Assembly: GCA_963931515.1 (NCBI GenBank)
Contig: OZ007022.1
Location: forward strand, 882,122 to 946,121
Length of the DNA stretch: 64,000 nt
From: an uncultured Bacilli bacterium
GTDB taxonomy: Bacteria; Bacillota_I; Bacilli_A; RF39; UBA660
Reading direction: 5' to 3'
This document shows, in pieces, positions 1-61,580 of the stretch. The translations under genes were made by a program, and so were the position numbers. The stretch's first letter is position 1. Each line of letters opens with the position of its first letter. A model generated the notes under the pieces. It was not told the origin of the DNA. It did not search any database and saw only the letters and a program-made list of their open reading frames with translations.

Positions 1-697
1 CTTTAGATACTTGGATAGTGCCATCTTTATCTTCTTCAGCATTGGTGATGATTATATCTAAGGTGGTTAAAGCACTTCTAGCATCACCGTTGGCATAGTT
101 AGCAATTATTTTTAAGTCTTCTTCGCTAATGTTTATTTTTTGTTTACCAAAACCTCTTTCATCAGTAATAGCTCTTTTAAGTAAGGTTAAAATATCATTA
201 CTAGATAATTCTTTTAAGACAAATACTCTACATCTTGAAAGTAAGGCGTTATTGATTTCAAAGGATGGGTTTTCGGTGGTGGCGCCAATTAAGAAGATTG
301 AGCCTTTTTCAACGAATGGTAAAAAGGCATCTTGCTGGGCTTTATTAAATCGATGAATTTCATCGACAAAGACAATGGTTTTGATACCTAGTCTCTTATT
401 ATTTTCGGCATCTTCCATAACTTTTTTAATTTCTTTGATACCTGAGGTTACAGCCGAGAATGTAATAAATTCAGATTTTGTTTCATGGGCAATTATTCTA
501 GCTAATGTGGTTTTCCCTACTCCTGGTGGGCCCCAAAAAATCATGGAAGATATGTTATCTGATTCAATCATTTTTCTAAGTAGTTTACCCTCTCCTATTA
601 AATGAGTTTGACCGGCAAATTCAGTTAGGTTTCTTGGGCGCATTCTAGATGCGAGTGGTTCATTTTTAGGTATTTCAAATAGTGACTGTTGATGCAT
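1..697 (-). CDS. rarA: Recombination factor RarA/MgsA (AAA+ ATPase); N-terminal part, gene runs off the window start
   Basis: Minus-strand translation from ATG at 695-697 (RBS GAGGTGA): MHQQSLFEIPKNEPLASRMRPRNLTEF...MIFWGPPGVGKTTLARIIAHET (Walker A)...VFVDEIHRFNKAQQDAFLPFVEKG. Not in the ORF track because the 3' end is outside the window. Confidence 0.8.
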   Translation of the reverse strand, partial: MHQQSLFEIPKNEPLASRMRPRNLTEFAGQTHLIGEGKLLRKMIESDNISSMIFWGPPGVGKTTLARIIAHETKSEFITFSAVTSGIKEIKKVMEDAENNKRLGIKTIVFVDEIHRFNKAQQDAFLPFVEKGSIFLIGATTENPSFEINNALLSRCRVFVLKELSSNDILTLLKRAITDERGFGKQKINISEEDLKIIANYANGDARSALTTLDIIITNAEEDKDGTIQVSK

Positions 698-1041
698 GTT
701 ATCACCTCTAATAAAATTATATATTATTGGTAGTTTTGATTCAAGTTTGGGTTTTAAATAGAGCTATTAATGCAATTGCTTGTGTTGTTCTAGTGACAAA
801 AACTCGACATTCATTCCTGCTTTTATTGACATTGTCATCGTTAAATCAAAATAGAATTTTTTACTTTTTTATATCAAATATATCATAATCCAACTTTTAT
901 GAGAATTATTACGATAAATATCAACACGATTTTATATTTTTTTCACATGAATGTGTTATAAATGGTTTATAAAATAAAGCTTTCTTAAAGTAAACTACTA
1001 TAATTAAACCACCATTAATTTCGTTATGGTGGTTTCTATAT

Positions 1042-2280
1042 TTATCTTTTTTTATTTCCTTTTCCTTTTGTTAATTCATCGTATAAATTTTTTAAGTGGG
1101 AATTATCCAAATTTGGTAAGTTTTCAATAATAACATTTGCCATGCGAGCTTTATCTTCGTCTGAAAATTCAATATATTCGTCTGGGTCTACTGGTGGTAA
1201 TTCGCTATCATCTTCTAAAGAAATTGTATAGTCAAAATCATTTTTATGATATATTCCAACACTTTCTGATATTGATGATAGTTGCCCATTTAAAAATCTA
1301 CTATTTTTCCACCCTTTACTACTGATAAATAGGCTTTCAGCATCTGATGTTGGTAAATTATTTTGTATATTAGCTTTTTTATTAATCATAGAAAAATTTC
1401 TACTAAATTTATATGGTCTATAAGCTGAAAATACAAAATCTAAATCATAATTTCTAATGAAATCGTTTAGCAAAAACAAATCTGATTTTAAATGAGAAGT
1501 CTTGGCTTCTAGTGATGTATCAATTGTTTTATCATAAAATATAACGCCAGAAGAATGTTCTAACATTCCCATTCTTTCAAATGCATAATTTTTCATTTCT
1601 ATTTTTGGAAAGTTAAAGGTATGATTTAGTTTTCCTTCTAAAACTGCATTTATAATTCTAGTTTCATTTGCTAGTATTTTTTCTAAGACAGTAAATAAAT
1701 CTTTTCTATCAGTCATTAATGATTTTATATTATCAGAGTGATTGAAAACACTTTCAAATTCTTGCATATTGGCTTTGATGACTTTTTCTTCTAGACCTAA
1801 TATGTGAAAAAGTCTAGTTGAAGAAATAGTTACTTTGGTTTTTTTTCCAATACTACTATCAATAATAAACACTTTATCTTTATATAATTTTTCATATAAA
1901 TACATATTATGTTCTAAGGCTTTGAATATTTGCTCTAGTTGCTTTTCTGTTAAAAGAGAATTTAAATTTTTTATTTGTTCTCCTTTGTGTAGAGTAATAC
2001 TTAAATCCTCTATAGATAATTTGTAAATTTTTGTTTTTTGAAATTCATCAATAAAGTCATAAATTATATCATATAATTCATATTGTTTTATTATTTCTTT
2101 TACATCTTCAAATTGCATTAATAACATCATTAAAATTTCCGTTGTATTTTCTTCTATATCTAACTGTAACACACCAATTAAATCTATACCATATTTTTGG
2201 ATTAAATGATGATTACATAATTTTAAAAAGTTTGCTAGGTCGCTTGTTGTTATTATTGATTTGCTTTGGTCATTATACAT
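1042..2280 (-). CDS. Hypothetical protein, 412 aa, acidic C-terminus, no recognisable motif
   Basis: Long ORF with RBS GGAG 8 nt upstream of the ATG; sits between rarA and an IS3 element. Confidence 0.55.
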   Translation of the reverse strand: MYNDQSKSIITTSDLANFLKLCNHHLIQKYGIDLIGVLQLDIEENTTEILMMLLMQFEDVKEIIKQYELYDIIYDFIDEFQKTKIYKLSIEDLSITLHKGEQIKNLNSLLTEKQLEQIFKALEHNMYLYEKLYKDKVFIIDSSIGKKTKVTISSTRLFHILGLEEKVIKANMQEFESVFNHSDNIKSLMTDRKDLFTVLEKILANETRIINAVLEGKLNHTFNFPKIEMKNYAFERMGMLEHSSGVIFYDKTIDTSLEAKTSHLKSDLFLLNDFIRNYDLDFVFSAYRPYKFSRNFSMINKKANIQNNLPTSDAESLFISSKGWKNSRFLNGQLSSISESVGIYHKNDFDYTISLEDDSELPPVDPDEYIEFSDEDKARMANVIIENLPNLDNSHLKNLYDELTKGKGNKKR

Positions 2281-2396
2281 AAATATGTCTCCAATCTATT
2301 CTTAATTTATTTCATATACGTTTTTTTTGTTGATGTTAGTATAGATATATAGACACAAAAATATAGAGAGTGATAAAATAAAATCAACGAAAGGAA

Positions 2397-2678
2397 GTGT
2401 CTATAATGACTAGAGGAAAACGTTATGATGAAGATTTTAAAAAAATGATAGTTGAATTATATACAGATCAGAATAAACCAGCTAGTGAAATAGAACGTGA
2501 ATATGGCGTAAGTAATGCAAGCATATATAAATGGATAGAGGAATATTCACCTATCAAAACAGACGATGGAACCGTTACTAACAATAAAGAAATTAAAAAG
2601 TTAAAAAAGGAATTAGCTCAAACCAAAGAAGAATTAGAAATACTAAAAAAAGCGATTGCCATATTCACGCAAAAATAG
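2397..2678 (+). CDS. IS3-family transposase OrfA (HTH domain)
   Basis: 93 aa with helix-turn-helix and leucine-zipper-like C-terminus (KKLKKELAQTKEELEILKKA); A7G at 2644-2651 near its 3' end. Confidence 0.8.
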   Translation: MSIMTRGKRYDEDFKKMIVELYTDQNKPASEIEREYGVSNASIYKWIEEYSPIKTDDGTVTNNKEIKKLKKELAQTKEELEILKKAIAIFTQK

Positions 2679-2728
2679 AAGATAAAATTAATTTTATTAA
2701 TAAATATAAAAGTCAATATAATGTAAGA

Positions 2729-3562
2729 TTGTTATGTGAGTGTTTAAATATTCATCATTCAGTTTACTATTATCATTGCAATCATAAAGAAAATAGTTAT
2801 CATAAATCAAACCAAGAATTAGATGAGAAAATAAAACAAATATATTTTGAATCTAAGCGAAGATATGGTTCACCTAAAATAACTAAAGTGTTAAACCGAA
2901 AAGGCGTTAAAGTAAGTCAAAAAAGAGTTGCTAGAAGAATGAAAAAATTAGGTCTAAGAAGTATAATTGTTAAAAAATATAATCATGCAAGTAGTTCAAA
3001 AAGCGATGAAACAAAAGAATATTCAAACCTTTTAAAGCAAGCTTTTTCAGCTAATAAACCAAGTGAGAAATGGGTCAGTGATATAACTTATATTTATACC
3101 AATGAAACAGGATGGACATATTTAGCTGTAGTTATAGACTTATTTGATTTAAAAGTGGTTGGTTGGTCTTATGGAATCAAAATGACAGATGACTTAGTAA
3201 TAGATGCTTTTAAAAAAGCAATGATAAATCGTGGATTAAACAAAGATGGTATATTTCATTCTGACAGAGGTAGTCAGTATACATCAAATGATTTTGGAAA
3301 ATTATTAAACCAACATAATATAAAACATTCATATAGTAAAAAAGGTTATCCATATGATAACGCAAGTATGGAAAGCTTCAATGCCATATTAAAGAAAGAA
3401 GAAGTAAATGTTAATACGTATAAAACATTTAAAGAAGCAAAACTAGCAATCTTTGAATTTATTGAAAGTTGGTACAACAATCACAGGATTCATAGTACAC
3501 TAGGATATATAACTCCAAATGAAAAATTTAATCAATATAAAGCTAGTTTAGCTATAGTTTAA
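2729..3562 (+). CDS. IS3-family transposase OrfB (DDE integrase core); probably made as an OrfAB fusion by -1 frameshift
   Basis: rve-type catalytic core (WVSDITYI...HSDRGSQYTS...YDNASMESFN); the -1 frame is open from the A7G site (2644-2651) into this ORF; annotated start is TTG. Confidence 0.8.
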   Translation: MLCECLNIHHSVYYYHCNHKENSYHKSNQELDEKIKQIYFESKRRYGSPKITKVLNRKGVKVSQKRVARRMKKLGLRSIIVKKYNHASSSKSDETKEYSNLLKQAFSANKPSEKWVSDITYIYTNETGWTYLAVVIDLFDLKVVGWSYGIKMTDDLVIDAFKKAMINRGLNKDGIFHSDRGSQYTSNDFGKLLNQHNIKHSYSKKGYPYDNASMESFNAILKKEEVNVNTYKTFKEAKLAIFEFIESWYNNHRIHSTLGYITPNEKFNQYKASLAIV

Positions 3563-3613
3563 ATTTCTCTTAAAAAATGTGTCTAAAAACTTGACCTAAA
3601 TCCAGATTGTCTT

Positions 3614-4033
3614 TTATTTACATGTATAGCCTTGCACTTCTAAAACTTGTTTTAATTCGGAGATGGTTATTTCTTGGGTGGTGTCTATTCCTATGAAACT
3701 ACCACCATGTTCTTTGGTTACAAATCTAATTCCATCATCGGTTACAGAGGCGCTCATATATGGTTTAGTTTGTCTTATCATATTAACATAATTTTGTCTT
3801 TGGTCTAAAAGTTCTTCTGGGAAAATCATATTAACGGTAAATACCATATCTTTTATTTTTTTATTATTAACTTTTATTTCTAGGTTTGATTTTGTTTTAA
3901 TATTAGATGAGGTGCCTTCGGCTGTGCAGGTTAAGGTTTTGGTGTTTTTAGAGTCAATTAAGAAAACTATAATTCCAAATGCTATGAGTAATAATACTAT
4001 AAATACTATCAACTTTTTATCTATTTTTTTCAT
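3614..4033 (-). CDS. Hypothetical membrane-anchored protein (139 aa)
   Basis: N-terminal TM helix; last gene of a ccdA / thioredoxin-like / this-gene operon on the minus strand. Confidence 0.5.
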   Translation of the reverse strand: MKKIDKKLIVFIVLLLIAFGIIVFLIDSKNTKTLTCTAEGTSSNIKTKSNLEIKVNNKKIKDMVFTVNMIFPEELLDQRQNYVNMIRQTKPYMSASVTDDGIRFVTKEHGGSFIGIDTTQEITISELKQVLEVQGYTCK

Positions 4034-4040
4034 ATATTTC

Positions 4041-4496
4041 CTACTTTCCTAAGACATCCATTATTTTATCTTCATTTACGGCTCCAACTAATGTTTCTTT
4101 AACTTTGCCATTTTCAAATATTATGAGTGTTGGAGTAGCGCTGATTTCATATTTTTCTATGATTTCATCATTTTCACTATCATCCATGTCAACGGTTGCT
4201 ATTTTGAGATTTTCATTATTTTTGGCAATATCTATTAATGTAGTTAACATAGCTACACAAGGTGGACAGGATTTAGATGTAAATTCTAAGACAACTGGTT
4301 TATCTGATTTTAAAACTTCTTTTGAAAAGTTTTCATCAGTGACTTTAACTATTCCGACATTGGCAGCTTCTTCTGGCTCTTCTAAGTTACTTTGACTAAA
4401 ATAATAGATGCCGGTGAATGCACATAATATAGCTATAAAAATTACGATTTCAATTATTAATTTTACTTTTTTATTCATGTTATACCTCCTAACCAA
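4041..4496 (-). CDS. Membrane-anchored thioredoxin-like thiol-disulfide oxidoreductase (TlpA/ResA-like)
   Basis: N-terminal TM anchor plus thioredoxin fold with CPPC active site (SKSCPPCVAM). Confidence 0.7.
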   Translation of the reverse strand: MVRRYNMNKKVKLIIEIVIFIAILCAFTGIYYFSQSNLEEPEEAANVGIVKVTDENFSKEVLKSDKPVVLEFTSKSCPPCVAMLTTLIDIAKNNENLKIATVDMDDSENDEIIEKYEISATPTLIIFENGKVKETLVGAVNEDKIMDVLGK

Positions 4497-42564: not shown

Positions 42565-43485
42565 TTATTCAATTGTGTATGGATTAGACTGACTTCCATC
42601 TCCGCCTGTGATTTTGATTGATGATGAGAGATAAATGGCCGGACGAACACTATGCCCACCACCATCTACTTGACCGTAGGAGCTATTTAATGTTCCATTG
42701 TGATCTACATAGAATGCACCGTTTGTACCCGTACCATTGTTGCTCGGAGATATAGTCCACCAAATGTAACCACTAAACATCCAGGTAGTATTTCTACATG
42801 TACTATAATTATCATTTGTTAAGGAATGAGTGCCACATAAACTAATATTTGAATTTGTACGTAAATATTCTGAAGTTGTAGCTAAACCAATTTTACCATT
42901 CCATATAGTATTTCTTTCAGAATTTATGGTGTTTGCTAAGTCATCGTCATCCCATAATGTTAATCCAACTTTCCAATCATGTGCAACTATTTGATTTTGA
43001 GCTGTTGAATTTAGTCCATTATAATAAGTGCTATTTAAATATGTATTTAGTGTGGATGGACGGGTCCAATTATTTGATCCCGACCTATCCCAATATTGAT
43101 CTCCTATGCTAGCTATTCTCATTATTTTTATTGTTCCATCACATTCTACTGATATTATTCTCCAGCCGGCTGTTTCATTATTAAATGTGACATAATTATT
43201 TGGATTTTGTCCTGTAAAGAAATACCTACACTCATAAGGGTCTTTTTCTAATCCTGCGTTTTCTATTATTTCTTCAGCTGGTGTTTTGGCAATGCAAGTT
43301 GCATATAGTTCATCTATCGCTCCTTGAACATTGGTACTCTCTAAACCACTTTCACTATTATCATACGTAGTTTGATTACTTGGAAAATATGTCATGGCTA
43401 AAACACTCACACCACCACATACAATAAGTCCTGTTATATACCCAGGTAGATATCCAAATACGATTTTTTTTATTTTCTCTTTCAT
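42565..43485 (-). CDS. Secreted/membrane-anchored Cys-containing protein, paralogue A (306 aa)
   Basis: N-terminal TM anchor; conserved blocks ESGLESTNVQGAIDELY, DPYECRYFFTGQNPNNY, AGWRIISVECDG; paralogous to 61656-62579. Confidence 0.5.
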   Translation of the reverse strand: MKEKIKKIVFGYLPGYITGLIVCGGVSVLAMTYFPSNQTTYDNSESGLESTNVQGAIDELYATCIAKTPAEEIIENAGLEKDPYECRYFFTGQNPNNYVTFNNETAGWRIISVECDGTIKIMRIASIGDQYWDRSGSNNWTRPSTLNTYLNSTYYNGLNSTAQNQIVAHDWKVGLTLWDDDDLANTINSERNTIWNGKIGLATTSEYLRTNSNISLCGTHSLTNDNYSTCRNTTWMFSGYIWWTISPSNNGTGTNGAFYVDHNGTLNSSYGQVDGGGHSVRPAIYLSSSIKITGGDGSQSNPYTIE

Positions 43486-46115: not shown

Positions 46116-47936
46116 CTATTTGATGGTATCAAAACCACTACGTTTGAATAATTTTTCTAAATCATAATTTGAATAATATATCATGGTTGGCCTTCCATGA
46201 GGACAGTTAAATGGATTTTTACAATTTCTTAAATCAGTAATTAAAGCTTCCATTTCTTCCATGGTGATATTAGTATTGGCTTTAATTGCATGTTTACAGC
46301 TCATCATAGTGGCAACTTTTTCATTGAATTTTTCGATGCTAAAATCTTTACGTGTCGCAATTACTATTTCAATTATTTTTCTGATTGATTCTTCTTCATA
46401 GCCTTTTGGAAGCCAAGCTGGGTGCTGTTTTATGATAACTGAGTTAATACCGAATTCCTCGATTTTGAATTTCAAATCTTCTAAAATATGCATGTTTTCT
46501 TTTAGGATTATGAATTCGTCGGTTGATAGTTCAATGGTGATTGGAAAAAGTAATGAGGTTGATGCTATGTTAGGTTTGCCCATGGCTTCTTTAAACTTTT
46601 CATAGTTACATCTTTCTTTAGCAGCGTGCTGGTCAATGATATACATACCTTTTTCATTTTGAGCAATAATGTATGTACCATGAACTAAACCTACAGGATA
46701 CATTTCAGGCATAAATTCTTTTTCTTCTTCTTTGGTGTTTATTTGATATTCTTCATTATCCATGGTTACTTCGTGAACGATATCGCCGTTATTTTCATCT
46801 TCATATATACTTTCATTGACTATAATTTCTGGTTCCTCGAATTCTATAGGTTCTGGCTTTATTTCGGGTGTGCTATGAGAATGTCTTTCTAAATCAAAGC
46901 GTAGTTCTTCTCTTTTCGGTTTTTCTTTTCTAATTGAAACTTCTGGTATTAAATTGCGGTCAGTAATAGCGGCCATAATGGTTACTTTAATTAATTCTAA
47001 TAATGTATCCATTTTACTAAATTTGATATCCATTTTAGTTGGATGTATGTTTACATCAATGACACTTGGGTCCACTAAAATATTGATAACAGTTATTGGA
47101 TATCTGTTATCTGGTTTATATGAGTGGTAAGCGTCATTTATAGTTCTATTAATATCCATGTTTCTAACTACTCTACCATTGACGATGGTCACCATGTTAT
47201 TACGACTAGATCTATGTACTTCTGGCAAGGATATATAACCAGATATTTCATAGTCGGGGTTTTCTCCTTTAATTGGTACCATTTTTCTAGCAACGTCAGT
47301 TCCATATATATTTTGTATAACTTTCAAGATGTTACCAGAACCATCTGTTCTTAAGATAATATTATCGTTGTTTTGTAAAGTGAAACGAATATTTGGCTGA
47401 GACAAAGCTAGTTTATTTATGTAGTCAGTTATACTTGCAAGTTCAGTATATAAGCTTTTCATGTGTTTTAATCTAGCTGGAGTGTTATAAAAAAGTTCAC
47501 TGACGGTAATAGTAGTGCCTTTTCTAGCATCGCCTAGACCTACTTCTAGAATTTTTCCACCATTTATGACAACATGTGTTCCAATATCTCCCATACATGT
47601 TTTTAAATCAACTTTACTTACAGCGGCAATTGAAGCGAGAGCTTCGCCTCTGAAACCTAAAGTAGTTAATCTATATAAATCATCTTCATCATCTATTTTA
47701 CTAGTGGCATGTCTTGAAAAAGCTAAGACAGCATCATCTTTATCCATGCCTTTACCATTATCGATGACTTTTATTTGTCTTGTTCCAGCGTCTTCTAGTT
47801 CAACTTTGATTTCAGTACTTCCGGCATCAATACTATTTTCGACTAACTCTTTGACAACTGAGGCACATCTTTCGACAACTTCACCTGCAGCTATTTTATT
47901 TGCAAGAAGTTCATCCATTACTTTTATTACGGACAT
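46116..47936 (-). CDS. mutL: DNA mismatch repair protein MutL
   Basis: GHKL ATPase N-terminus (VELVENSIDAGSTEI, DNGKGM) and MutL C-terminal dimerisation domain. Confidence 0.9.
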   Translation of the reverse strand: MSVIKVMDELLANKIAAGEVVERCASVVKELVENSIDAGSTEIKVELEDAGTRQIKVIDNGKGMDKDDAVLAFSRHATSKIDDEDDLYRLTTLGFRGEALASIAAVSKVDLKTCMGDIGTHVVINGGKILEVGLGDARKGTTITVSELFYNTPARLKHMKSLYTELASITDYINKLALSQPNIRFTLQNNDNIILRTDGSGNILKVIQNIYGTDVARKMVPIKGENPDYEISGYISLPEVHRSSRNNMVTIVNGRVVRNMDINRTINDAYHSYKPDNRYPITVINILVDPSVIDVNIHPTKMDIKFSKMDTLLELIKVTIMAAITDRNLIPEVSIRKEKPKREELRFDLERHSHSTPEIKPEPIEFEEPEIIVNESIYEDENNGDIVHEVTMDNEEYQINTKEEEKEFMPEMYPVGLVHGTYIIAQNEKGMYIIDQHAAKERCNYEKFKEAMGKPNIASTSLLFPITIELSTDEFIILKENMHILEDLKFKIEEFGINSVIIKQHPAWLPKGYEEESIRKIIEIVIATRKDFSIEKFNEKVATMMSCKHAIKANTNITMEEMEALITDLRNCKNPFNCPHGRPTMIYYSNYDLEKLFKRSGFDTIK

Positions 47937-48037
47937 AACATCACCCTACTTTTAACCTTCTTATAAGATTATACCATTATTTATAAGTAAAAAACAATAA
48001 AAGAAAGTTGTAATTTAATCATGTTATGTTTTTAATG

Positions 48038-48125
48038 GTTACTATTCACAGTCCCTTTAAAATATCATAATTTGTTTTAATATATTTTTCTTAAGCTATG
48101 AATAGTAACGTTTTTCAAAAGGGAC
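48038..48125. repeat. Interleaved inverted-repeat pairs A-B ... A'-B' upstream of the Rpn gene
   Basis: A gttactattcacag (48038-48051) pairs with A' ctatgaatagtaac (48096-48109); B gtcccttt (48051-48058) pairs with B' aaagggac (48118-48125). Confidence 0.6.
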
Positions 48126-48157
48126 AAGTAATTTACTAAGATATTACTTGTTTTTTT
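48126..48157 (+). terminator. Hairpin terminator
   Basis: caagtaat / attacttg stem followed by T7. Confidence 0.5.
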
Positions 48158-48286
48158 GTGGTAACTTAATAATAGTAGTGAAAAAAGAAATAATGAATAA
48201 AATTTGCAATTTTTTTTGGAATTTTAGAAGGAAATAAGATGTCTACGCCGTATGTTTATATATGAAGGGGCAAAGAAAGGAGTTAT

Positions 48287-49189
48287 ATGAAAATAGAACA
48301 TTTAGAAAACCTAGACCAAACGTTATCTTTGATTCCTTTAAACTATGATAGAGCTTTTAAAAGTGTGTTTAAAATAAATTTAGATATTTTAAAATACTTT
48401 TTAAAAGTAACTATTCCTATCAATATAAACGATAATGATAGTATAAATCTTTTAGATAGTGAAATACCTGTCACCAGTAAAAATGAATATAAAAGAACCG
48501 TCGATATTCTAGTCGTCATTAATAATAAAATATTTATTGATGTAGAGATGAATAAAAGTAAATTTGAATATGTATCTGAACGTAATTTTTCATATGGAGA
48601 TATTATATCTACAAGAGTTATAGAAATGGGAGAAGATATAAATAATTTAAAATATAAATATGTATATCAGCTTAATTTGAATGAAAGTCCATATGAAGAT
48701 ATACTAGAAGATGATATAGTTTTGTATGGATTAAAGAGTCACAAGATATATAATTCTAATAGGCATACCTTAACTAAATCACTTGAACTTTACAGAAATT
48801 TATATTACAATGAAGGTAATAGAAATAAAGAAGTTATTTGGTATACGATGCTTACAGCGCGAACGTTTAGTGAGTTATATGAACTAGCTAGACAAGTACT
48901 AGATGAAGATAAAGTTCAAAAGTTAATGGAGGCGGTTATAAATATGAGTAAAGATGAGTTTATTATTCATGAGTGGCAGAAAGAAAAGATGGATGCTTTA
49001 GTTAAGCATAATGAGATGGAGGGAGCTAAAAAAGATGGAATCGAAGAAGGCAAAAGTATTGGAATCAAAGAAAGTAAACTAGAAATAGCTCAGAATTTAC
49101 TTAATATGAAAATAAGCATAAAAGATATTTCAAAAGCTACTGGTCTAACTATCCAAGAAATCGAAAAATTAAGAAGCACTAATGAATAA
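48287..49189 (+). CDS. Rpn-family recombination-promoting nuclease / putative transposase (PD-(D/E)XK, YhgA-like)
   Basis: N-terminal nuclease region (DRAFKSVF..., VDILVVINNKIFIDVEMN) and characteristic C-terminal tail (IAQNLLNMKISIKDISKATGLTIQEIEKL). Confidence 0.7.
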   Translation: MKIEHLENLDQTLSLIPLNYDRAFKSVFKINLDILKYFLKVTIPININDNDSINLLDSEIPVTSKNEYKRTVDILVVINNKIFIDVEMNKSKFEYVSERNFSYGDIISTRVIEMGEDINNLKYKYVYQLNLNESPYEDILEDDIVLYGLKSHKIYNSNRHTLTKSLELYRNLYYNEGNRNKEVIWYTMLTARTFSELYELARQVLDEDKVQKLMEAVINMSKDEFIIHEWQKEKMDALVKHNEMEGAKKDGIEEGKSIGIKESKLEIAQNLLNMKISIKDISKATGLTIQEIEKLRSTNE

Positions 49190-49230
49190 ATTTAGTGCTT
49201 TTAAATTGATGTTTACAATATATTTATCTT

Positions 49231-49244
49231 CTGTGAATAGTAAC
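49231..49244. repeat. Third copy of the 14-bp motif (ctgtgaatagtaac) downstream of the Rpn gene
   Basis: Same orientation as 48096-48109; one mismatch. Confidence 0.6.
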
Positions 49245-49268
49245 TTTTAATGTATGCAAAACAGGGAA

Positions 49269-49403
49269 TTATACTTTCTCGGCTTCCTTTTGTAGTAATT
49301 TAATTTTTTCTTCAGTTAGACCACTTACTTTTGAGATAGTTTTAATATCAATATTTTCTTTAAGTCTATTTTCAGCTATTTGTATTTGATTTTCTTTTTT
49401 TAT
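49269..49403 (-). pseudogene. Relic encoding an Rpn C-terminal-tail-like peptide (no start codon)
   Basis: Minus-strand frame reads ...IAENRLKENIDIKTISKVSGLTEEKIKLLQKEAEKV*, resembling the Rpn tail IAQNLLNMKISIKDISKATGLTIQEIEKL; preceded by an in-frame stop. Confidence 0.35.
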
Positions 49404-49420
49404 TTATCAAAAAAGAAGGT

Positions 49421-50071
49421 TTAATTTGTAATTTTACCTTCTTTTAAATATTTAACAATATCGACTTTTTCTTTGACATTGTTTGAGTGAGATATAATGA
49501 TAATACATTTTTTATCTTTATGAGCTAGATTTATGAAGATGTCTAAAACTTCTTCTTCGGTTTCTTTATCTAAGTTTCCGGTTGGTTCATCGGCTAAGAT
49601 AATACTTGGGTTATAAGCTAAGGCTCTAGCAATAGCGACACGTTGTTGCTGACCACCGGATAGAGTTAGAATTTTTTGACCCGCTTTTGATTTATCAATT
49701 CCAACTTTTTCTAGACATTCTAAGGCTTTTTGCTTTTTATCTTTTCCTTTATAACCACTGATATCCATTGATAAAATGACGTTTTCTAAAGCGGTTAAGT
49801 AAGGAAGTAAGTTATAACTTTGAAAGACAATACCAACATCATGGCACCTATAATAATCGTGATTTATTTTGTTTAAACTTTTACCGTTATAAAGTATTTC
49901 TCCTTCTTTATAGGTTTCTAAACCGGCCATTAGACTTAACAGTGTTGATTTACCAGCTCCACTTTTACCAAATATACCATATACTTTTCCTTCTTGAAAA
50001 TTTAAGTTTAAGTTTTTTAAAACATTGTCTCCATTTTTGTATGCGAAGTTTAAGTTTTTTAATTTTAAAAT
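49421..50071 (-). CDS. ABC transporter ATP-binding protein with no canonical start codon (candidate ATT start)
   Basis: Frame is open from the permease stop through Walker A (GKSGAGKSTLL) to the signature and Walker B, but has no ATG/GTG/TTG before the Walker A; AAGGAGG lies 7 nt upstream of ATT at 50069-50071. Confidence 0.65.
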   Translation of the reverse strand: MLKLKNLNFAYKNGDNVLKNLNLNFQEGKVYGIFGKSGAGKSTLLSLMAGLETYKEGEILYNGKSLNKINHDYYRCHDVGIVFQSYNLLPYLTALENVILSMDISGYKGKDKKQKALECLEKVGIDKSKAGQKILTLSGGQQQRVAIARALAYNPSIILADEPTGNLDKETEEEVLDIFINLAHKDKKCIIIISHSNNVKEKVDIVKYLKEGKITN

Positions 50072-50083
50072 AGTATCGCCTCC

Positions 50084-51511
50084 TTAAGTTTGATTTCTAA
50101 GTATTTGATTTGGATTATATTTAGTAATAAATATTGCGGATACGGAGCCACTAACTGTAACTAGAATTAAGCCAAAGCTAAATAATAGAATAATGGTTTT
50201 TGTATCTAATGTTACTTTTAGACTATCTTCATAGTTTTGATTTGCCCTTTGTTCATTTGGTCTTTCGAATCCTCTTCCACCAAAGTTTGCCCTAGTGTTT
50301 TCTGTTTGGGCTTGCTGAGACGCAATTTCGTTTTCAAGCATTTTATTAGTGACTGGCTGACTTAATAGTTTGCCTCCAATTATACCTATTATAAATGCTA
50401 TAACAGTGACGATAAAAAGTTCAGCTAGCAAGCTTAATATTAATTTGACTTTACTCATACCTATAGCTCTTAGAACACCTATTTCGTATTTTCTATCTCT
50501 AATGTTTAACATATTTATAACAGCTAATATAATAGCACCAACAATTAAAATAATGATTAAGAAGGTCATAGAAAAGTTACTGATGTTTTTAATTGGTGTT
50601 AAGGTGTTTGTAATCTCATCTGAGTTATCAGATAAGGTGTAATAATCACTTAATCCTTTTTCTTTTACTTCCTCGGTGTAGGCTTCTAAGTCATCTTGGC
50701 TTTTTAAATAAATAGTAGCGTTTAAACTGTTTGAATTATCAACTTCTTCTAAAATGTTATTGATTACTGTAATATTGGTATAAATTTGGTTTTGAGCATT
50801 TAAGACATTCATGTTCAGAAAATCTTCAGAACTACTGTCACTAGTTGTTTCAAAGATACCGGTTATTTCAAATGTGTAAGTTTTAGAAGAATCAGATGGT
50901 AAATAGAATGTTATTTCATCACCTACTTCTAAATCATTTTGGTTAGCTAACTCTTCACTAATTACGATATGATTTTCTTCGTCATCACTAGTAATCATCG
51001 AACCTGAGGTTATTTTAGAAGTGCCATTTATAAAGTTTTCAATATAAGAGGTATCTGAGTAAGCGGTTATTTTAAAGTCACCTAAGCTTTCCATATTTTG
51101 TTTGTTTTCACCTCGTCCACCAGGCATTTCTCCTTCTGGCGGAGTTTCACTATTATCTTTTGGTTCAAATTTTTCACTCATATCAATAGCATCAATTTCA
51201 TCTGATGATAAACTAGCGTCTAAGGTATAATAATAACTAGATACATAATCAGAGTTGGCATAGTTTTCAATATCGCTTACGCTAAGTTTTGTGTAAGTTG
51301 TGTTTTCATCTCTAAGTTTACTCATGTCTAATCTAAAGGATACAGCTAATTCATTTTTGTTTTTATAGCTTTCGATTAGTTTATTTCCTGATGTGTTTAT
51401 TGATAAGGCGACGGTAGAACTTAGGGCTACTACTAAAACTATTAATCCTATTAAAATGTTTCTTCCTAAATGTCTTTTTATATTAATCCAGGCATTTTTT
51501 ACAATGTACAT
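50084..51511 (-). CDS. ABC transporter permease, FtsX-like (475 aa)
   Basis: N-terminal TM, large extracytoplasmic domain, C-terminal FtsX 3-TM bundle. Confidence 0.75.
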   Translation of the reverse strand: MYIVKNAWINIKRHLGRNILIGLIVLVVALSSTVALSINTSGNKLIESYKNKNELAVSFRLDMSKLRDENTTYTKLSVSDIENYANSDYVSSYYYTLDASLSSDEIDAIDMSEKFEPKDNSETPPEGEMPGGRGENKQNMESLGDFKITAYSDTSYIENFINGTSKITSGSMITSDDEENHIVISEELANQNDLEVGDEITFYLPSDSSKTYTFEITGIFETTSDSSSEDFLNMNVLNAQNQIYTNITVINNILEEVDNSNSLNATIYLKSQDDLEAYTEEVKEKGLSDYYTLSDNSDEITNTLTPIKNISNFSMTFLIIILIVGAIILAVINMLNIRDRKYEIGVLRAIGMSKVKLILSLLAELFIVTVIAFIIGIIGGKLLSQPVTNKMLENEIASQQAQTENTRANFGGRGFERPNEQRANQNYEDSLKVTLDTKTIILLFSFGLILVTVSGSVSAIFITKYNPNQILRNQT

Positions 51512-51636
51512 TTCTCTCCTTTCACATTTTAAGTATATTTGGAATGTGTGAAATAATTATGCGTCCAAAGTGAAAAAAAGGAGAAAATAATCTAGGCAAA
51601 GGCATAAAAATATTATATAATATAGTTGTTTGATGT

Positions 51637-51712
51637 GCTGGAGTAGCTCAGTTGGTAGAGCAGCTGTCTCGTAATCAGCAGGTCGCAGGTTCAAGTCCTG
51701 TTTCCAGCACCA
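51637..51712 (+). tRNA. tRNA-Thr (anticodon CGU)
   Basis: GCTGGAGTAGCTCAGTTGGTAGAGC...anticodon loop CTCGTAA...GGTTCAAGTCC...CCAGCACCA; 76 nt with encoded CCA. Confidence 0.85.
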
Positions 51713-58466: not shown

Positions 58467-59690
58467 GTGTATATGAATACACAAGATTTTAAAATTTATA
58501 TTAAAAATATTAGGAAGGAGGCATTAGAAATTGGATATTCTATTAAAACGATGGATGGATATTTAGTGATATGGAATAAATTCATTAAATGGAAAAATGA
58601 AATTCATTTTGTATATGATGAAAAAGAATACTCTAAATTTTTGTTTGATTATTATCATTTTGATGTTAGTAAATTTACTAATAAATCTAAGTCTAGACAT
58701 CAACAATTAATGAGATCAAAAAGAATACTAGATAATTTTGATAGTTATAAAATACATATACTTAAAAGAAGCTTGCCTAAAGCATTATATTCTAATTATC
58801 CTAGTAATTGGAATATAATTTTAGATGGTTATTTAAATTATTTAAAAAATGTAAGACAAAATAGCGATAACAGTATTAAAATCAAAGGAGATTATTTAGT
58901 TCATTTGCTATCTTATTTTTATCAAAATAAAATAAATGATTTAAAACAATTATCTAAATTAGATATTACAAATTTTATAAATAAAGTGGTAGAAAAAGGT
59001 AATATTTCCAAAAGAAGAAACTTCTATGTTCTAGGTGACTTTTTAAAATATTTATTTATAGAAAATATTCTACTTGAAGATTTATCTGTTTATGTTCCAA
59101 GAATTAATCGAAGAAAGAAAAGAAAACTACCAACTTATTTAAAACAAGAAAATATTGAAAAGTTGCTTGAAAGCATTCCGAAATTAAAAAAGGTTGATAT
59201 CAGAAATTATGCCATCATCTTACTTGCCGCAAGACTGGGACTTAGACTAAGTGATATTTTAAATATTAAACTAAAAGATATTGATTGGAAAAATAAAAAA
59301 ATAAATATTATACAGCCTAAAACTAATAACTTAAATATACTCCCTTTATCTAAAGAGGTTGGGTGGGCCATTATTGATTATATTAATAAAGCTAGGCCTA
59401 AATGTAATAATGAATACTTGTTCATCAAAATGCATTATCCGTTTGAAAAAATGGAACAATTTACTGATTTTAATAAATATTTTGATAAGTGTGATTTTAA
59501 GCAAAAAGATACAAAAAAAGGAATTCATAATCTAAGACATTCCCTCGCAACCAATCTATTAGATAATGATATTCCTATTCACATTATTTCATCAGTCTTA
59601 GGTCATACATCTACTGATACTACCTCTAATACATATCTAAAGATTGACCTTAAAAATCTTAAAAAAGTATGTTTGGAGGTAGATGAATAA
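58467..59690 (+). CDS. Tyrosine recombinase, RIT subunit A-like (407 aa)
   Basis: Catalytic R..H..R..Y region (HNLRHSLATNLL ... GHTSTDTTSNTYLK). Confidence 0.75.
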   Translation: MYMNTQDFKIYIKNIRKEALEIGYSIKTMDGYLVIWNKFIKWKNEIHFVYDEKEYSKFLFDYYHFDVSKFTNKSKSRHQQLMRSKRILDNFDSYKIHILKRSLPKALYSNYPSNWNIILDGYLNYLKNVRQNSDNSIKIKGDYLVHLLSYFYQNKINDLKQLSKLDITNFINKVVEKGNISKRRNFYVLGDFLKYLFIENILLEDLSVYVPRINRRKKRKLPTYLKQENIEKLLESIPKLKKVDIRNYAIILLAARLGLRLSDILNIKLKDIDWKNKKINIIQPKTNNLNILPLSKEVGWAIIDYINKARPKCNNEYLFIKMHYPFEKMEQFTDFNKYFDKCDFKQKDTKKGIHNLRHSLATNLLDNDIPIHIISSVLGHTSTDTTSNTYLKIDLKNLKKVCLEVDE

Positions 59691-60628
59691 TGCGAGAATA
59701 TAATACCATATTTGATGAATTTATTCAATTTAAACATTTTTTAGGATATAAATATAAAACTGATGAAATAGTTATTAATGAAATAAAAAATTATCTAATA
59801 GAACATAATATTACTAAAATAACTAAAGAAGTTACCGAAGATTATGCGGGGTTAAATACTAATATATCATCTAATACAATAGCCAGAAATATGGGAGTAT
59901 TTAGAGAATTTTGTAATTTTTTAAAATATCAAAAAGATATAGATTGTTATCAAATACCAAACAAAATATATCCACAAAACCATAATAACTTTATTCCTTA
60001 TATATTTTCATATGAAGAAATTAAGTTGATTTATTCTAACTTAAACGAACCACTAAAAGATTATCATTATAGTTACTATAAACAAAAAGCTTATCCTTTA
60101 ATTATTAAAATACTTTATCAAACTGGTATGCGAATCGGAGAACTGTTAAATATTAAGCTTGAAGATTATAATTATGAATTATCTGCGTTTAAACTTACGG
60201 ATACTAAAAATAATGAAGAAAGATATGTGGCTATTTCTGATAAATTAAATGAAGAAATAAATAAATTTGTAACTAAATTTTTCTATAATAAATCAAATGA
60301 TGAATATATTTTTAAAATACACGGAGATTCAGCTACAAAATATTTTAAAAAAGTATTAATGTTATCTAATATTAAAATAACTGATAAAGGGCCTAGACTA
60401 CATGATTTAAGGCATACTTACCTTGTTCATAATATTGATAAAGCTATTAAAGAAAATAGAGATGTAAATCAAATATTACCTATACTAAAAACTCAGATTG
60501 GACATAAAAGTTTAAATTCTATTGCTTATTATTTTCATATTAATAAAGATATATTAGGAACAGTTAATGAAATATCAGAGAACGAACTAGGTTATCTAAT
60601 ACCAAGTATAGGTGAAGATAATGAATAA
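59690..60628 (+). CDS. Tyrosine recombinase, RIT subunit B-like (312 aa)
   Basis: LHDLRHTYLVHNI ... GHKSLNSIAYYFHI; start overlaps the previous stop (ATGA). Confidence 0.75.
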   Translation: MREYNTIFDEFIQFKHFLGYKYKTDEIVINEIKNYLIEHNITKITKEVTEDYAGLNTNISSNTIARNMGVFREFCNFLKYQKDIDCYQIPNKIYPQNHNNFIPYIFSYEEIKLIYSNLNEPLKDYHYSYYKQKAYPLIIKILYQTGMRIGELLNIKLEDYNYELSAFKLTDTKNNEERYVAISDKLNEEINKFVTKFFYNKSNDEYIFKIHGDSATKYFKKVLMLSNIKITDKGPRLHDLRHTYLVHNIDKAIKENRDVNQILPILKTQIGHKSLNSIAYYFHINKDILGTVNEISENELGYLIPSIGEDNE

Positions 60629-61580
60629 AGATTTTTCATATTACTTATCAAAGTTTTTAAAAGACTACTTAATTATAGAAAGAAATATGTCATTACATAC
60701 TGTTCGTTCCTATAAAAAGACATTTCAAACACTTATAGATTATTTAGTAAACATTAAAAATTTTAAGTTACAAAATATCACATTTGAAAATATAGCTAGA
60801 GAAATAATTATAGAGTTTTTAAATTACCTAGAAGATGATAAAAAAAACAGTATTAGAACAAGGAATCAGAGGCTAGCCTGTATAAAATCATTTTATCAGT
60901 ACTGTATGATAGATGAAATAGATAATATTGATAACATCAGAAAAATATTGAGTATTAAAGCAAAAAAAGAAACTAAGAAAGTAATGAGTTATCTTACAGA
61001 AGATGAATTACAAAAATTATTTAATAGTATAGATACAACAACAAATAAAGGTAGAAGGAACTTAACCTTACTCACACTTTTATATGATACAGCAGCTAGA
61101 ACCAGTGAAATTATTAATCTTAAAGTAGAAAATATACATTTAGAAGAAAAATATATAATATTAACTGGAAAAGGTAATAAACAAAGAATAGTATCTATGA
61201 TGGAACAAACAAAAAAATTATTAATTAATTATATTAAAGAAAATCATATAAAAAGTGGCTATTTATTTAATATTAATGGCAACAAAATGAACGAAAGATT
61301 TTTAAGAGATATTGTAAAAGTAACAAATTCATTAGACAAACAAATATCACCACATACATTTAGACATACAAGAGCTGTCCATTTACTCGATAAAGGAGTT
61401 AATATAATATATATTCAGGAATTACTTGGACACACATCAGTTAATACAACGATGGAATATGCGAAAGTAATAGAAAAGTCAAAATTTGAAGCCATTGAAA
61501 AAGCAAATCCTAAGATGGATAATAATTTGCCTGATTGGAATGATGATAAAGATTTACTTAGCCAACTATTGAACTTGTAA
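60612..61580 (+). CDS. Tyrosine recombinase, RIT subunit C-like (322 aa)
   Basis: XerC/D-like N-terminal core-binding region and HTFRHTRAVHLL ... GHTSVNTTMEYAK. Confidence 0.75.
   Translation: MKIMNKDFSYYLSKFLKDYLIIERNMSLHTVRSYKKTFQTLIDYLVNIKNFKLQNITFENIAREIIIEFLNYLEDDKKNSIRTRNQRLACIKSFYQYCMIDEIDNIDNIRKILSIKAKKETKKVMSYLTEDELQKLFNSIDTTTNKGRRNLTLLTLLYDTAARTSEIINLKVENIHLEEKYIILTGKGNKQRIVSMMEQTKKLLINYIKENHIKSGYLFNINGNKMNERFLRDIVKVTNSLDKQISPHTFRHTRAVHLLDKGVNIIYIQELLGHTSVNTTMEYAKVIEKSKFEAIEKANPKMDNNLPDWNDDKDLLSQLLNL

Follow-up and report, generated by a model that had tools for sequence, protein, structure and literature searches.

An Rpn-family nuclease gene as the probable cargo of a non-autonomous IS66-type insertion cassette in an uncultured Bacilli bacterium

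Genes of the Rpn (YhgA-like) family have long been annotated as 'putative transposases', and their ends and target sites were never defined (PMC5350276). A locus of an uncultured Bacilli bacterium raises the question of how such a gene came to lie between copies of a 14-bp motif, and which enzyme would move it. The stretch of DNA analyzed here, called the window, comprises 64,000 nucleotides (assembly GCA_963931515.1, contig OZ007022.1, positions 882,122 to 946,121) with a G+C content of 28.7%, and contains the Rpn gene next to mutL. From the sequence alone, an original prediction had described the gene as part of a small recombinogenic cassette with a pseudoknot-like or operator-like array of repeats (A-B-A'-B') on its upstream side and the relic of a second Rpn tail on its downstream side. 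According to the present analysis, the segment 48038-49244 is very probably a non-autonomous mobile insertion cassette (MIC) that stems from an ISBst12-like insertion sequence (IS) of the IS66 family and carries Rpn as cargo. Rpn is a passenger of this element and not its transposase.

The 14-mer CTGTGAATAGTAAC is located at 48038-48051 on the minus strand and at 49231-49244 on the plus strand, and a slightly degenerate third copy, CTATGAATAGTAAC, is found at 48096-48109 on the plus strand, so that all three motif copies lie exactly where they had originally been reported. A search of the 64-kb window for exact copies returned these three only, and just one position (32460) was added when up to two mismatches (<=2) were allowed. 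The two outer 14-mers delimit a 1,207-bp element (48038-49244) as its terminal inverted repeats, which match perfectly, and both are abutted on their outer side by the octamer TTTTAATG, which forms a perfect 8-bp direct repeat (48030-48037 and 49245-49252). Additionally, the region of the internal copy (A') and the right end share a direct repeat of about 31-33 bp (48079-48109 versus 49217-49244). The Rpn gene is the sole notable open reading frame (ORF) between the two ends.

A search of genome contigs with the Rpn protein returned eight loci, and all genomes concerned are metagenome-assembled genomes (MAGs) labeled 'uncultured Bacilli bacterium'. Three further Rpn cassettes were identified (L003, L013, and L012), for which homology ends exactly at the repeats and the flanks differ. 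The 94% identical paralogue L003 belongs to the same genome and comprises the entire unit, flanked by gCAAAATA and aCAAAATA (a duplication at 7/8 positions), L013 (OZ007038.1, from another MAG species) has AAATTTTT on both sides of the cassette (8/8 positions), and L012 is a decayed copy with both ends degenerate. The expectation that the motif would flank other Rpn copies was hence borne out for these three loci and failed for the close Rpn paralogues L005, L009, and L014 (72-83% identity), around which the repeats are absent.

A comparison of relatives for presence or absence of the cassette, as originally proposed, yielded an empty site in L197, a strain whose MutL is 98% identical. Here, the exact insertion site contains the octamer once (TATTAAAA in the orientation of mutL, with one single-nucleotide polymorphism) and the Rpn-tail relic, and neither the cassette nor any copy of the motif is present. 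Read in the orientation of mutL, the relic is followed by gcatgTATTAAAAacataacatgatt and the mutL promoter in L197, and the order at the same site of the window is gcataCATTAAAA, cassette, CATTAAAAacataac. L197 has the relic and one octamer without the cassette, which is accordingly an insertion next to an older relic that does not belong to it. Both the relic and the cassette are absent from L198 and L199 (MutL 94% identical), which contain the ABC-transporter operon found upstream of mutL in the window. L191-L196 (MutL 89-92% identity) are uninformative for the empty site because their region upstream of mutL is rearranged, with no ABC operon and a tRNA-Thr beside mutL. The features of the cassette and its surroundings are the following (positions in the window):

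48030-48037, no strand: left target-site duplication TTTTAATG; identical octamer at 49245-49252, single copy at the empty site of L197
48038-48051, plus strand: left terminal inverted repeat GTTACTATTCACAG (A, the inverted copy of the original prediction); homology with L003, L013, and L012 ends exactly here, and the same 14-mer terminates elements with IS66-family transposases
48051-48058, plus strand: B, GTCCCTTT, the first arm of the inverted repeat B/B' (8 bp); L013 has uncompensated changes in both B and B'
48096-48109, plus strand: A', CTATGAATAGTAAC, an internal and slightly degenerate version of the repeat at the right end; combined with the left repeat, it gives a 72-bp doublet of ends that resembles a small miniature inverted-repeat transposable element (mini-MITE)
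48118-48125, plus strand: B', AAAGGGAC, the other arm, abutting the hairpin; paired in the minimum-free-energy fold with the T-run side of the hairpin and not with B
48125-48157, plus strand: terminator-like hairpin; stem CAAGTAAT (48125-48132) with ATTACTTG (48143-48150), 10-nt loop, then seven T
48287-49189, plus strand: Rpn-family cargo gene, 300 amino acids (aa), predicted from profile matches
48928-48946, plus strand: internal GGAGG, 11 nt, and in-frame ATG (Met220); kept in four cassette copies
49217-49244, plus strand: right end, with the repeat CTGTGAATAGTAAC at 49231-49244; its subterminal part directly repeats 48079-48109, and homology with the other copies ends at 49244
49245-49252, no strand: right target-site duplication TTTTAATG, matching the left octamer
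49269-49403, minus strand: Rpn-tail relic, recognized by tblastn; outside the cassette and also beside the empty site of L197

To whom these ends belong became apparent when public collections were scanned for GTTACTATTCACAGYY. The same 14-mer bounds insertion sequences of 1.9-2.6 kb which encode IS66-family DDE transposases (PF03050, ISBst12-like), and it is identical in the PF03050-encoding elements L076, L093, L104, L171, and L200-L205. Elements of 2.2-2.6 kb from metagenome contigs contain ORFs of 520-650 aa in which the IS66 zinc-finger region is present, the matches to PF03050 (DDE_Tnp_IS66) have E-values of 7e-11 and 9e-20 and are above the Pfam cut-off, and some of the cognate IS66-type elements add a small upstream ORF of ~104-134 aa. 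A single-ORF IS of 1,875 bp recurs at six sites, always with the identical transposase (P0121), in genomes whose G+C content is 24-29%, and one of the sites comes from the 'BRZ' sample series that is shared with related MAGs; its inverted repeats of 21 bp open with the cassette 14-mer, and 9-bp duplications are found at 4/6 sites. The cognate transposases are ~27% identical to annotated 'IS66 family transposase' genes on plasmids of Clostridium, Bacillus, and Deinococcus, which are their nearest annotated plasmid relatives.

The same ends also enclose unrelated cargo. On the viral/prophage contig L043 (39% G+C), a 739-bp element is framed by these repeats in perfect form and by a duplication of 8 bp, AAGCGGCC, and its only gene encodes a GNAT acetyltransferase (PF00583, E = 6e-15). 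This cassette (2941-3679 of IMGVR_UViG_2524614690_000001) adjoins a gene resembling sigma-70 region 4/RNA polymerase alpha-CTD. Further unrelated cargo lies between such ends in L102, L132, and L138, and numerous ORF-less elements of 48-330 bp carry them as well. Over all elements examined, perfect duplications measured 8 bp in ten cases, 9 bp in four, 7 bp in one, and 18 bp in one, and most intact IS copies with these ends have duplications of 8-9 bp. The 18-bp duplication, CAAAATTTCAAAAAGTTT, belongs to the full-length IS66-type copy in L171 (7842-10186), and in L135 (about 680-4162) two IS66-type copies are arranged head to tail, 8 bp apart. The motif pairs of L022, L062, and L064 were discarded as chance matches located within a phage helicase gene.

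The reading of Rpn as cargo rests on this finding that the same ends bound IS66-family transposases and unrelated genes without Rpn. The original prediction had connected the motif with Rpn genes and had named its occurrence independently of them as the outcome that would speak against this connection; what was found is exactly this, as an Rpn homologue is present in none of the 170 other motif-bearing loci (0/170). From the proposed small recombinogenic cassette, a mobile, motif-bounded unit remains, which recurs at several loci and which a close relative lacks, whereas the motif itself turned out to be the terminal inverted repeat of IS66-family elements and not an Rpn-specific recombination site. 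Membership in the IS66 family is defined by a PF03050 transposase. The window element encodes only Rpn, and a tblastn search with an IS66-type transposase found no such gene inside the 64-kb window, the cassette included. The element is an IS66-type derivative and not a member of the IS66 family.

The cargo itself is, as judged from its profile matches, a 300-aa Rpn-family PD-(D/E)XK nuclease. The ORF 48287-49189 reached 70.4 bits with TIGR01784 (cut-off 52.1 bits) over profile positions 3-273 of 273, its match to PF12784 is borderline (27.3 versus 27.4), and its C-terminal tail corresponds to HTH_Rpn_C (PF27070, precomputed). The ratios of non-synonymous to synonymous substitution rates (dN/dS) among the cassette copies of 0.13-0.28 point to purifying selection on the gene. 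Within the reading frame, a GGAGG followed after 11 nt by an in-frame ATG at Met220 is conserved in 4/4 cassette copies. By analogy with the Rpn/RpnS proteins of Escherichia coli (PMC10400941), Met220 could be the start of an 81-aa RpnS-like C-terminal product or antitoxin. Homology would make the cargo a toxic endonuclease acting on DNA, possibly accompanied by an antitoxin encoded within the gene, and it could provide the host with phage defense or aid the persistence of the cassette. The C-terminal segment GIEEGKSIGIKES, encoded at 49079-49102, is shortened by eight residues in L012 and altered by substitutions in L003, reminiscent of the variable repeats that have been described in Rpn/RpnS proteins.

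Upstream of the gene (48235-48270), a sequence block is common to all Rpn paralogues, irrespective of whether they have the ends (L003, L005, L006, L007, L009, and L014). It consists of AAAAAGGAAAT, 7-9 nt, and TACG(C/T)CGTATGTTTATATAT(G)AAGG with the palindrome TACGNCGTA within, and may be a family-specific promoter or operator. Genes of the DUF6273 family also recur beside Rpn paralogues, upstream in L006, L007, and L009 and downstream in L005; the window contains one at 42565-43485.

The opposite-strand peptide downstream of the cassette had been taken for an Rpn C-terminal tail, and this identification is confirmed by the alignments. The relic (minus strand, 49272-49403) encodes the 44 residues IKKENQIQIAENRLKENIDIKTISKVSGLTEEKIKLLQKEAEKV, followed by a stop codon at 49269-49271; a start codon is absent, two stops lie immediately upstream, and the N-terminal side is cut off by the terminator of the ABC operon. 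It is 45% identical to residues 261-300 of the Rpn protein (tblastn E = 0.003) and up to 72% identical to other Rpn C-termini over 32 residues (P0084). Judged by this similarity, the relic represents the last 44 codons of another, older Rpn paralogue together with its stop codon. The view that it forms part of the cassette had to be given up, as it lies outside the element and is present in L197 without the cassette. Among the relatives compared at mutL, the relic is restricted to the lineage of the window and L197.

Elements that lack an ORF, measure 161-189 bp, and end in the same 14-mer are located 38-57 bp 3' of the Rpn stop codon in L006 (4966-5126), L007 (4991-5179), L017 (261-449), and L018 (300-460). 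The one in L017 is flanked by a perfect duplication, AGGCTTAG, and L019 resembles a paralogous empty site. In the Bacilli clade, every insertion seen with these ends, the relic-adjacent cassette included, lies 17-57 bp 3' of an Rpn stop, a pattern to be read with a possible ascertainment bias in mind, as the loci were fetched via Rpn homology. We consider it unlikely, albeit conceivable, that the link between IS66-type ends and Rpn is functional; Rpn 3' regions, or bound Rpn or its helix-turn-helix tail, may guide targeting, or the toxin-antitoxin cargo may be an addiction or defense module which aids the spread and persistence of the cassette.

The miniature elements also bear on how the cassette might have arisen. 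The 72-bp A-A' doublet has no target duplication of its own in the window, L003, L012, and L013, and doublets of the same repeat of 48-100 bp, comparable to A-A', occur at other loci. Since the doublet never has its own duplication, since A' and the right end share 31-33 bp, and since miniature elements sit just 3' of Rpn genes, a composite origin is suggested, in which two miniature elements would have come to flank an Rpn gene and the outermost ends would then have moved as a unit. An IS66-type DDE transposase, provided in trans, would bind the two outer repeats, make a staggered target cut of 8-9 bp, and integrate the cassette. The insertion itself is shown by the empty site, as the cassette went in between the mutL promoter and the older Rpn-tail relic, whereby the octamer TTTTAATG was duplicated. 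The hairpin at the left end would stop transcription from outside, and the conserved region upstream of Rpn would drive its expression.

Three other explanations have to be weighed against the one given here. Inverted repeats, an 8-bp duplication, and a single 300-aa ORF, found in at least four copies, are the classic layout of an IS, and the cassette might therefore be autonomous, with Rpn as the transposase that recognizes the 14-bp ends and the miniature elements as its non-autonomous derivatives. This would be in line with the old label of Rpn genes as 'putative transposases'; the C-terminal helix-turn-helix of Rpn could bind DNA, fragments of the source genome show no other transposase, and within the Bacilli clade the elements with these ends are always found beside Rpn genes. 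This hypothesis was dropped once the same ends had been found around the GNAT gene and IS66-family transposases. Against it argue the many genomes in which identical ends, with no Rpn homologue, bound unrelated cargo or DDE transposase genes of the IS66 family, as well as the Rpn paralogues of 72-83% identity that have no such ends. No PD-(D/E)XK enzyme is known to perform strand transfer alone, which likewise counts against Rpn as the transposase; TnsA of Tn7 depends on the DDE protein TnsB. Moreover, Kingston et al. observed no IS-like behavior of Rpn genes (PMC5350276). Taken together, we judge an Rpn transposase to be highly improbable. In the second alternative, Rpn would be regulated by the A-B-A'-B' array, either as a functional RNA (a pseudoknot or a riboswitch-like leader) or through two pairs of operators, and the third motif copy would be incidental. 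B and B' and the order A-B-A'-B' are indeed present (B at 48051-48058, B' at 48118-48125), the region 48030-48165 is far more stably folded than shuffled controls (z = -4.8 for RNA, -3.5 for DNA), a terminator-like hairpin follows directly, and the whole 250-bp leader is 89% conserved among the copies. However, this conservation is explained by the recent age of the copies, and the minimum-free-energy fold consists of two simple hairpins, A:A' and the terminator-like stem, in which B and B' are not paired with each other. An Rfam scan of 47800-49600 returned no family match even at E-values of up to 10, the two microRNA hits (E > 1) being due to chance. Of the 21 A/A' and B/B' pairs, seven vary across the four copies, and all changes break the pair with none compensated, which is weak evidence in that this covariation test rests on four recent copies. 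Moreover, A is the terminus of the element, found in elements with quite different adjoining sequence, and can be accounted for without any function as RNA or operator. Together, A and A' form a doublet of ends. Neither the pseudoknot nor the operator pairs of the original prediction found support, and a regulatory array of either kind appears hardly credible to us.

The direct repeat of 31-33 bp which brackets the gene (48079-48109 and 49217-49244) could also represent attL and attR of a circle integrated by a site-specific recombinase, or the inverted pair could be an invertible switch, and three tyrosine-recombinase genes are located ~10 kb away (58467-61580). Yet the homology between copies continues to the left past the inner repeat up to the outer 14-mer, the 8-bp flanking duplications differ at every site, which is typical of transposition and not of site-specific integration, the empty site is devoid of any motif copy, and among the assemblies holding the locus there is no variant in inverted orientation. 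A recombinase origin is accordingly the reading to which we attach the least credence of all. The three recombinase genes at 58467-61580 (plus strand) are tandem ORFs of 407, 312, and 322 aa and resemble a recombinase-in-trio element; the first contains Phage_integrase (precomputed Pfam) and the conserved C-terminal tyrosine-recombinase motif region. With respect to the left-end hairpin (48125-48157), which is invariant in 4/4 copies, a simple promoter/terminator scan was uninformative and missed this AT-rich structure because its stem has only two G-C pairs. Together with its T-run, this hairpin probably keeps outside transcription from entering the cassette.

Several observations weigh against the reading as a mobile cassette of IS66-type origin. 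The full-length IS copies L076, L093, and L104 in metagenome contigs have no duplication. A search for an IS66-type transposase across the 64-kb window and the fetched loci of the source and sister MAGs (~150 kb of these genomes covered) was negative, and among the 120 closest homologues of the low-GC IS66-type transposase there was none that could be assigned to the source or sister genomes. Beyond the 14-16 bp of the repeats, the cassette and the autonomous elements share almost nothing, the sole further similarity being a short TTTTTCTTAA...AAGCTGTGAATAGTAAC match with L166. By its ends, the cassette appears to derive from an ISBst12-like IS of the IS66 family, while descent from any one particular IS lacks sequence support. 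As for other candidates, an IS256-like element in L009 was ruled out as mobilizer, as the repeat is absent from it even at <=3 mismatches, and a loose resemblance of the ends to the IS6-family sequence GGTTCTGTTGCAAAG was superseded by the IS66 evidence. ISPlu15 may be an Rpn-like ISfinder entry, presumably without inverted or direct repeats.

Among known systems, the window element comes close to the MICs, for which MIC231 of IS231 in Bacillus cereus, with IS4/IS231 as parent family, is an example. Common to both are IS-type inverted repeats around one or more passenger genes, the lack of a transposase, a target duplication, ORF-less MITE relatives, and the presumed mobilization in trans by the cognate IS. 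Unlike in MIC231, the parent family is IS66/ISBst12-like instead of IS4/IS231, and the cargo is an Rpn nuclease. MICs are defined together with MITEs and solo inverted repeats in ISfinder/ISsaga (PMC3129680). A member of the ISBst12 group of the IS66 family, ISDge4, has been shown experimentally to transpose and is bounded by the repeats GTGACTACTCAGCA/GTAACTGCTCAGCA, with a direct repeat of 8 bp (PMC12898284). The cassette shares with it the repeat form GTnACTnnTCA, with a match at 9/14 positions (GTTACTATTCACAG versus GTGACTACTCAGCA), as well as 8-bp direct repeats. As in the ISBst12 group, the autonomous relatives with the exact cassette 14-mer encode a single large PF03050 transposase, whereas the window element has none. 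TIME-COMPs, composites bounded by two MITE copies and derived from Tn3 elements (PMC13367494), offer a parallel to the suggested origin, since the A-A' doublet and the 31-33-bp repeat suggest that here, too, a gene was captured between copies or ends of miniature elements and the outermost ends were used. In contrast to TIME-COMPs, the transposon family is another one, the right-hand copy is down to about 30 bp, and the composite origin would follow from the repeat structure.

In E. coli, the Rpn (YhgA-like) toxin with its intragenic antitoxin RpnS constitutes an antiphage system (PMC10400941; PMC5350276). The cargo gene resembles this system in passing the TIGR01784 cut-off, in its HTH_Rpn_C tail, in the internal Shine-Dalgarno sequence with an in-frame ATG, and in the indel within a C-terminal repeat-like segment. 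It differs from it in that the E. coli genes have no defined ends or duplications, whereas here the gene lies inside a transposable cassette. Kingston et al. reported that Rpn genes, unlike IS elements, stay put in laboratory lineages and proposed them to be eroded mobile elements (PMC5350276). In work on Wolbachia and Rickettsia, 'PDDEXK2 transposases' were called transposons from their distribution alone (PMC12445526).

The neighborhood of the cassette provided some additional observations. The stretch upstream of mutL (49405-51712) varies among close relatives, as seen in comparison with L193/L194 and L198. The tRNA-Thr adjoins mutL in genomes with 91% identical MutL, whereas an operon of FtsX-permease and ABC-ATPase lies in between in the window and L198. 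The ABC-transporter ATPase gene beside the relic (49421-50071, minus strand) appears in the list as an ORF of 169 aa whose N-terminus seems to be missing, and the identical 169-aa gene call is found in L001 and L198. Its frame runs upstream through a Walker A motif (GKSGAGKST) to an ATT at 50071-50069, 7 nt after AAGGAGG, and the gene probably uses a start codon other than ATG, GTG, or TTG.

The type of element described here is well known, and its wider significance is modest in this respect; the cassette is new by its passenger gene, Rpn, within IS66-type ends, and no report of an Rpn gene within defined IS66-type ends was found in the literature. As a caution for annotation, inverted repeats, a duplication, and one ORF are no proof that the ORF is the transposase. 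The elements sharing these ends point to a sizeable, previously unnoted group of ISBst12-like sequences in metagenomes from gut, rumen, and fermentations, which includes MITEs and cargo cassettes of its own. For the Rpn family, the cassette would represent a concrete route by which toxin/antitoxin, antiphage-type genes move within and between genomes.

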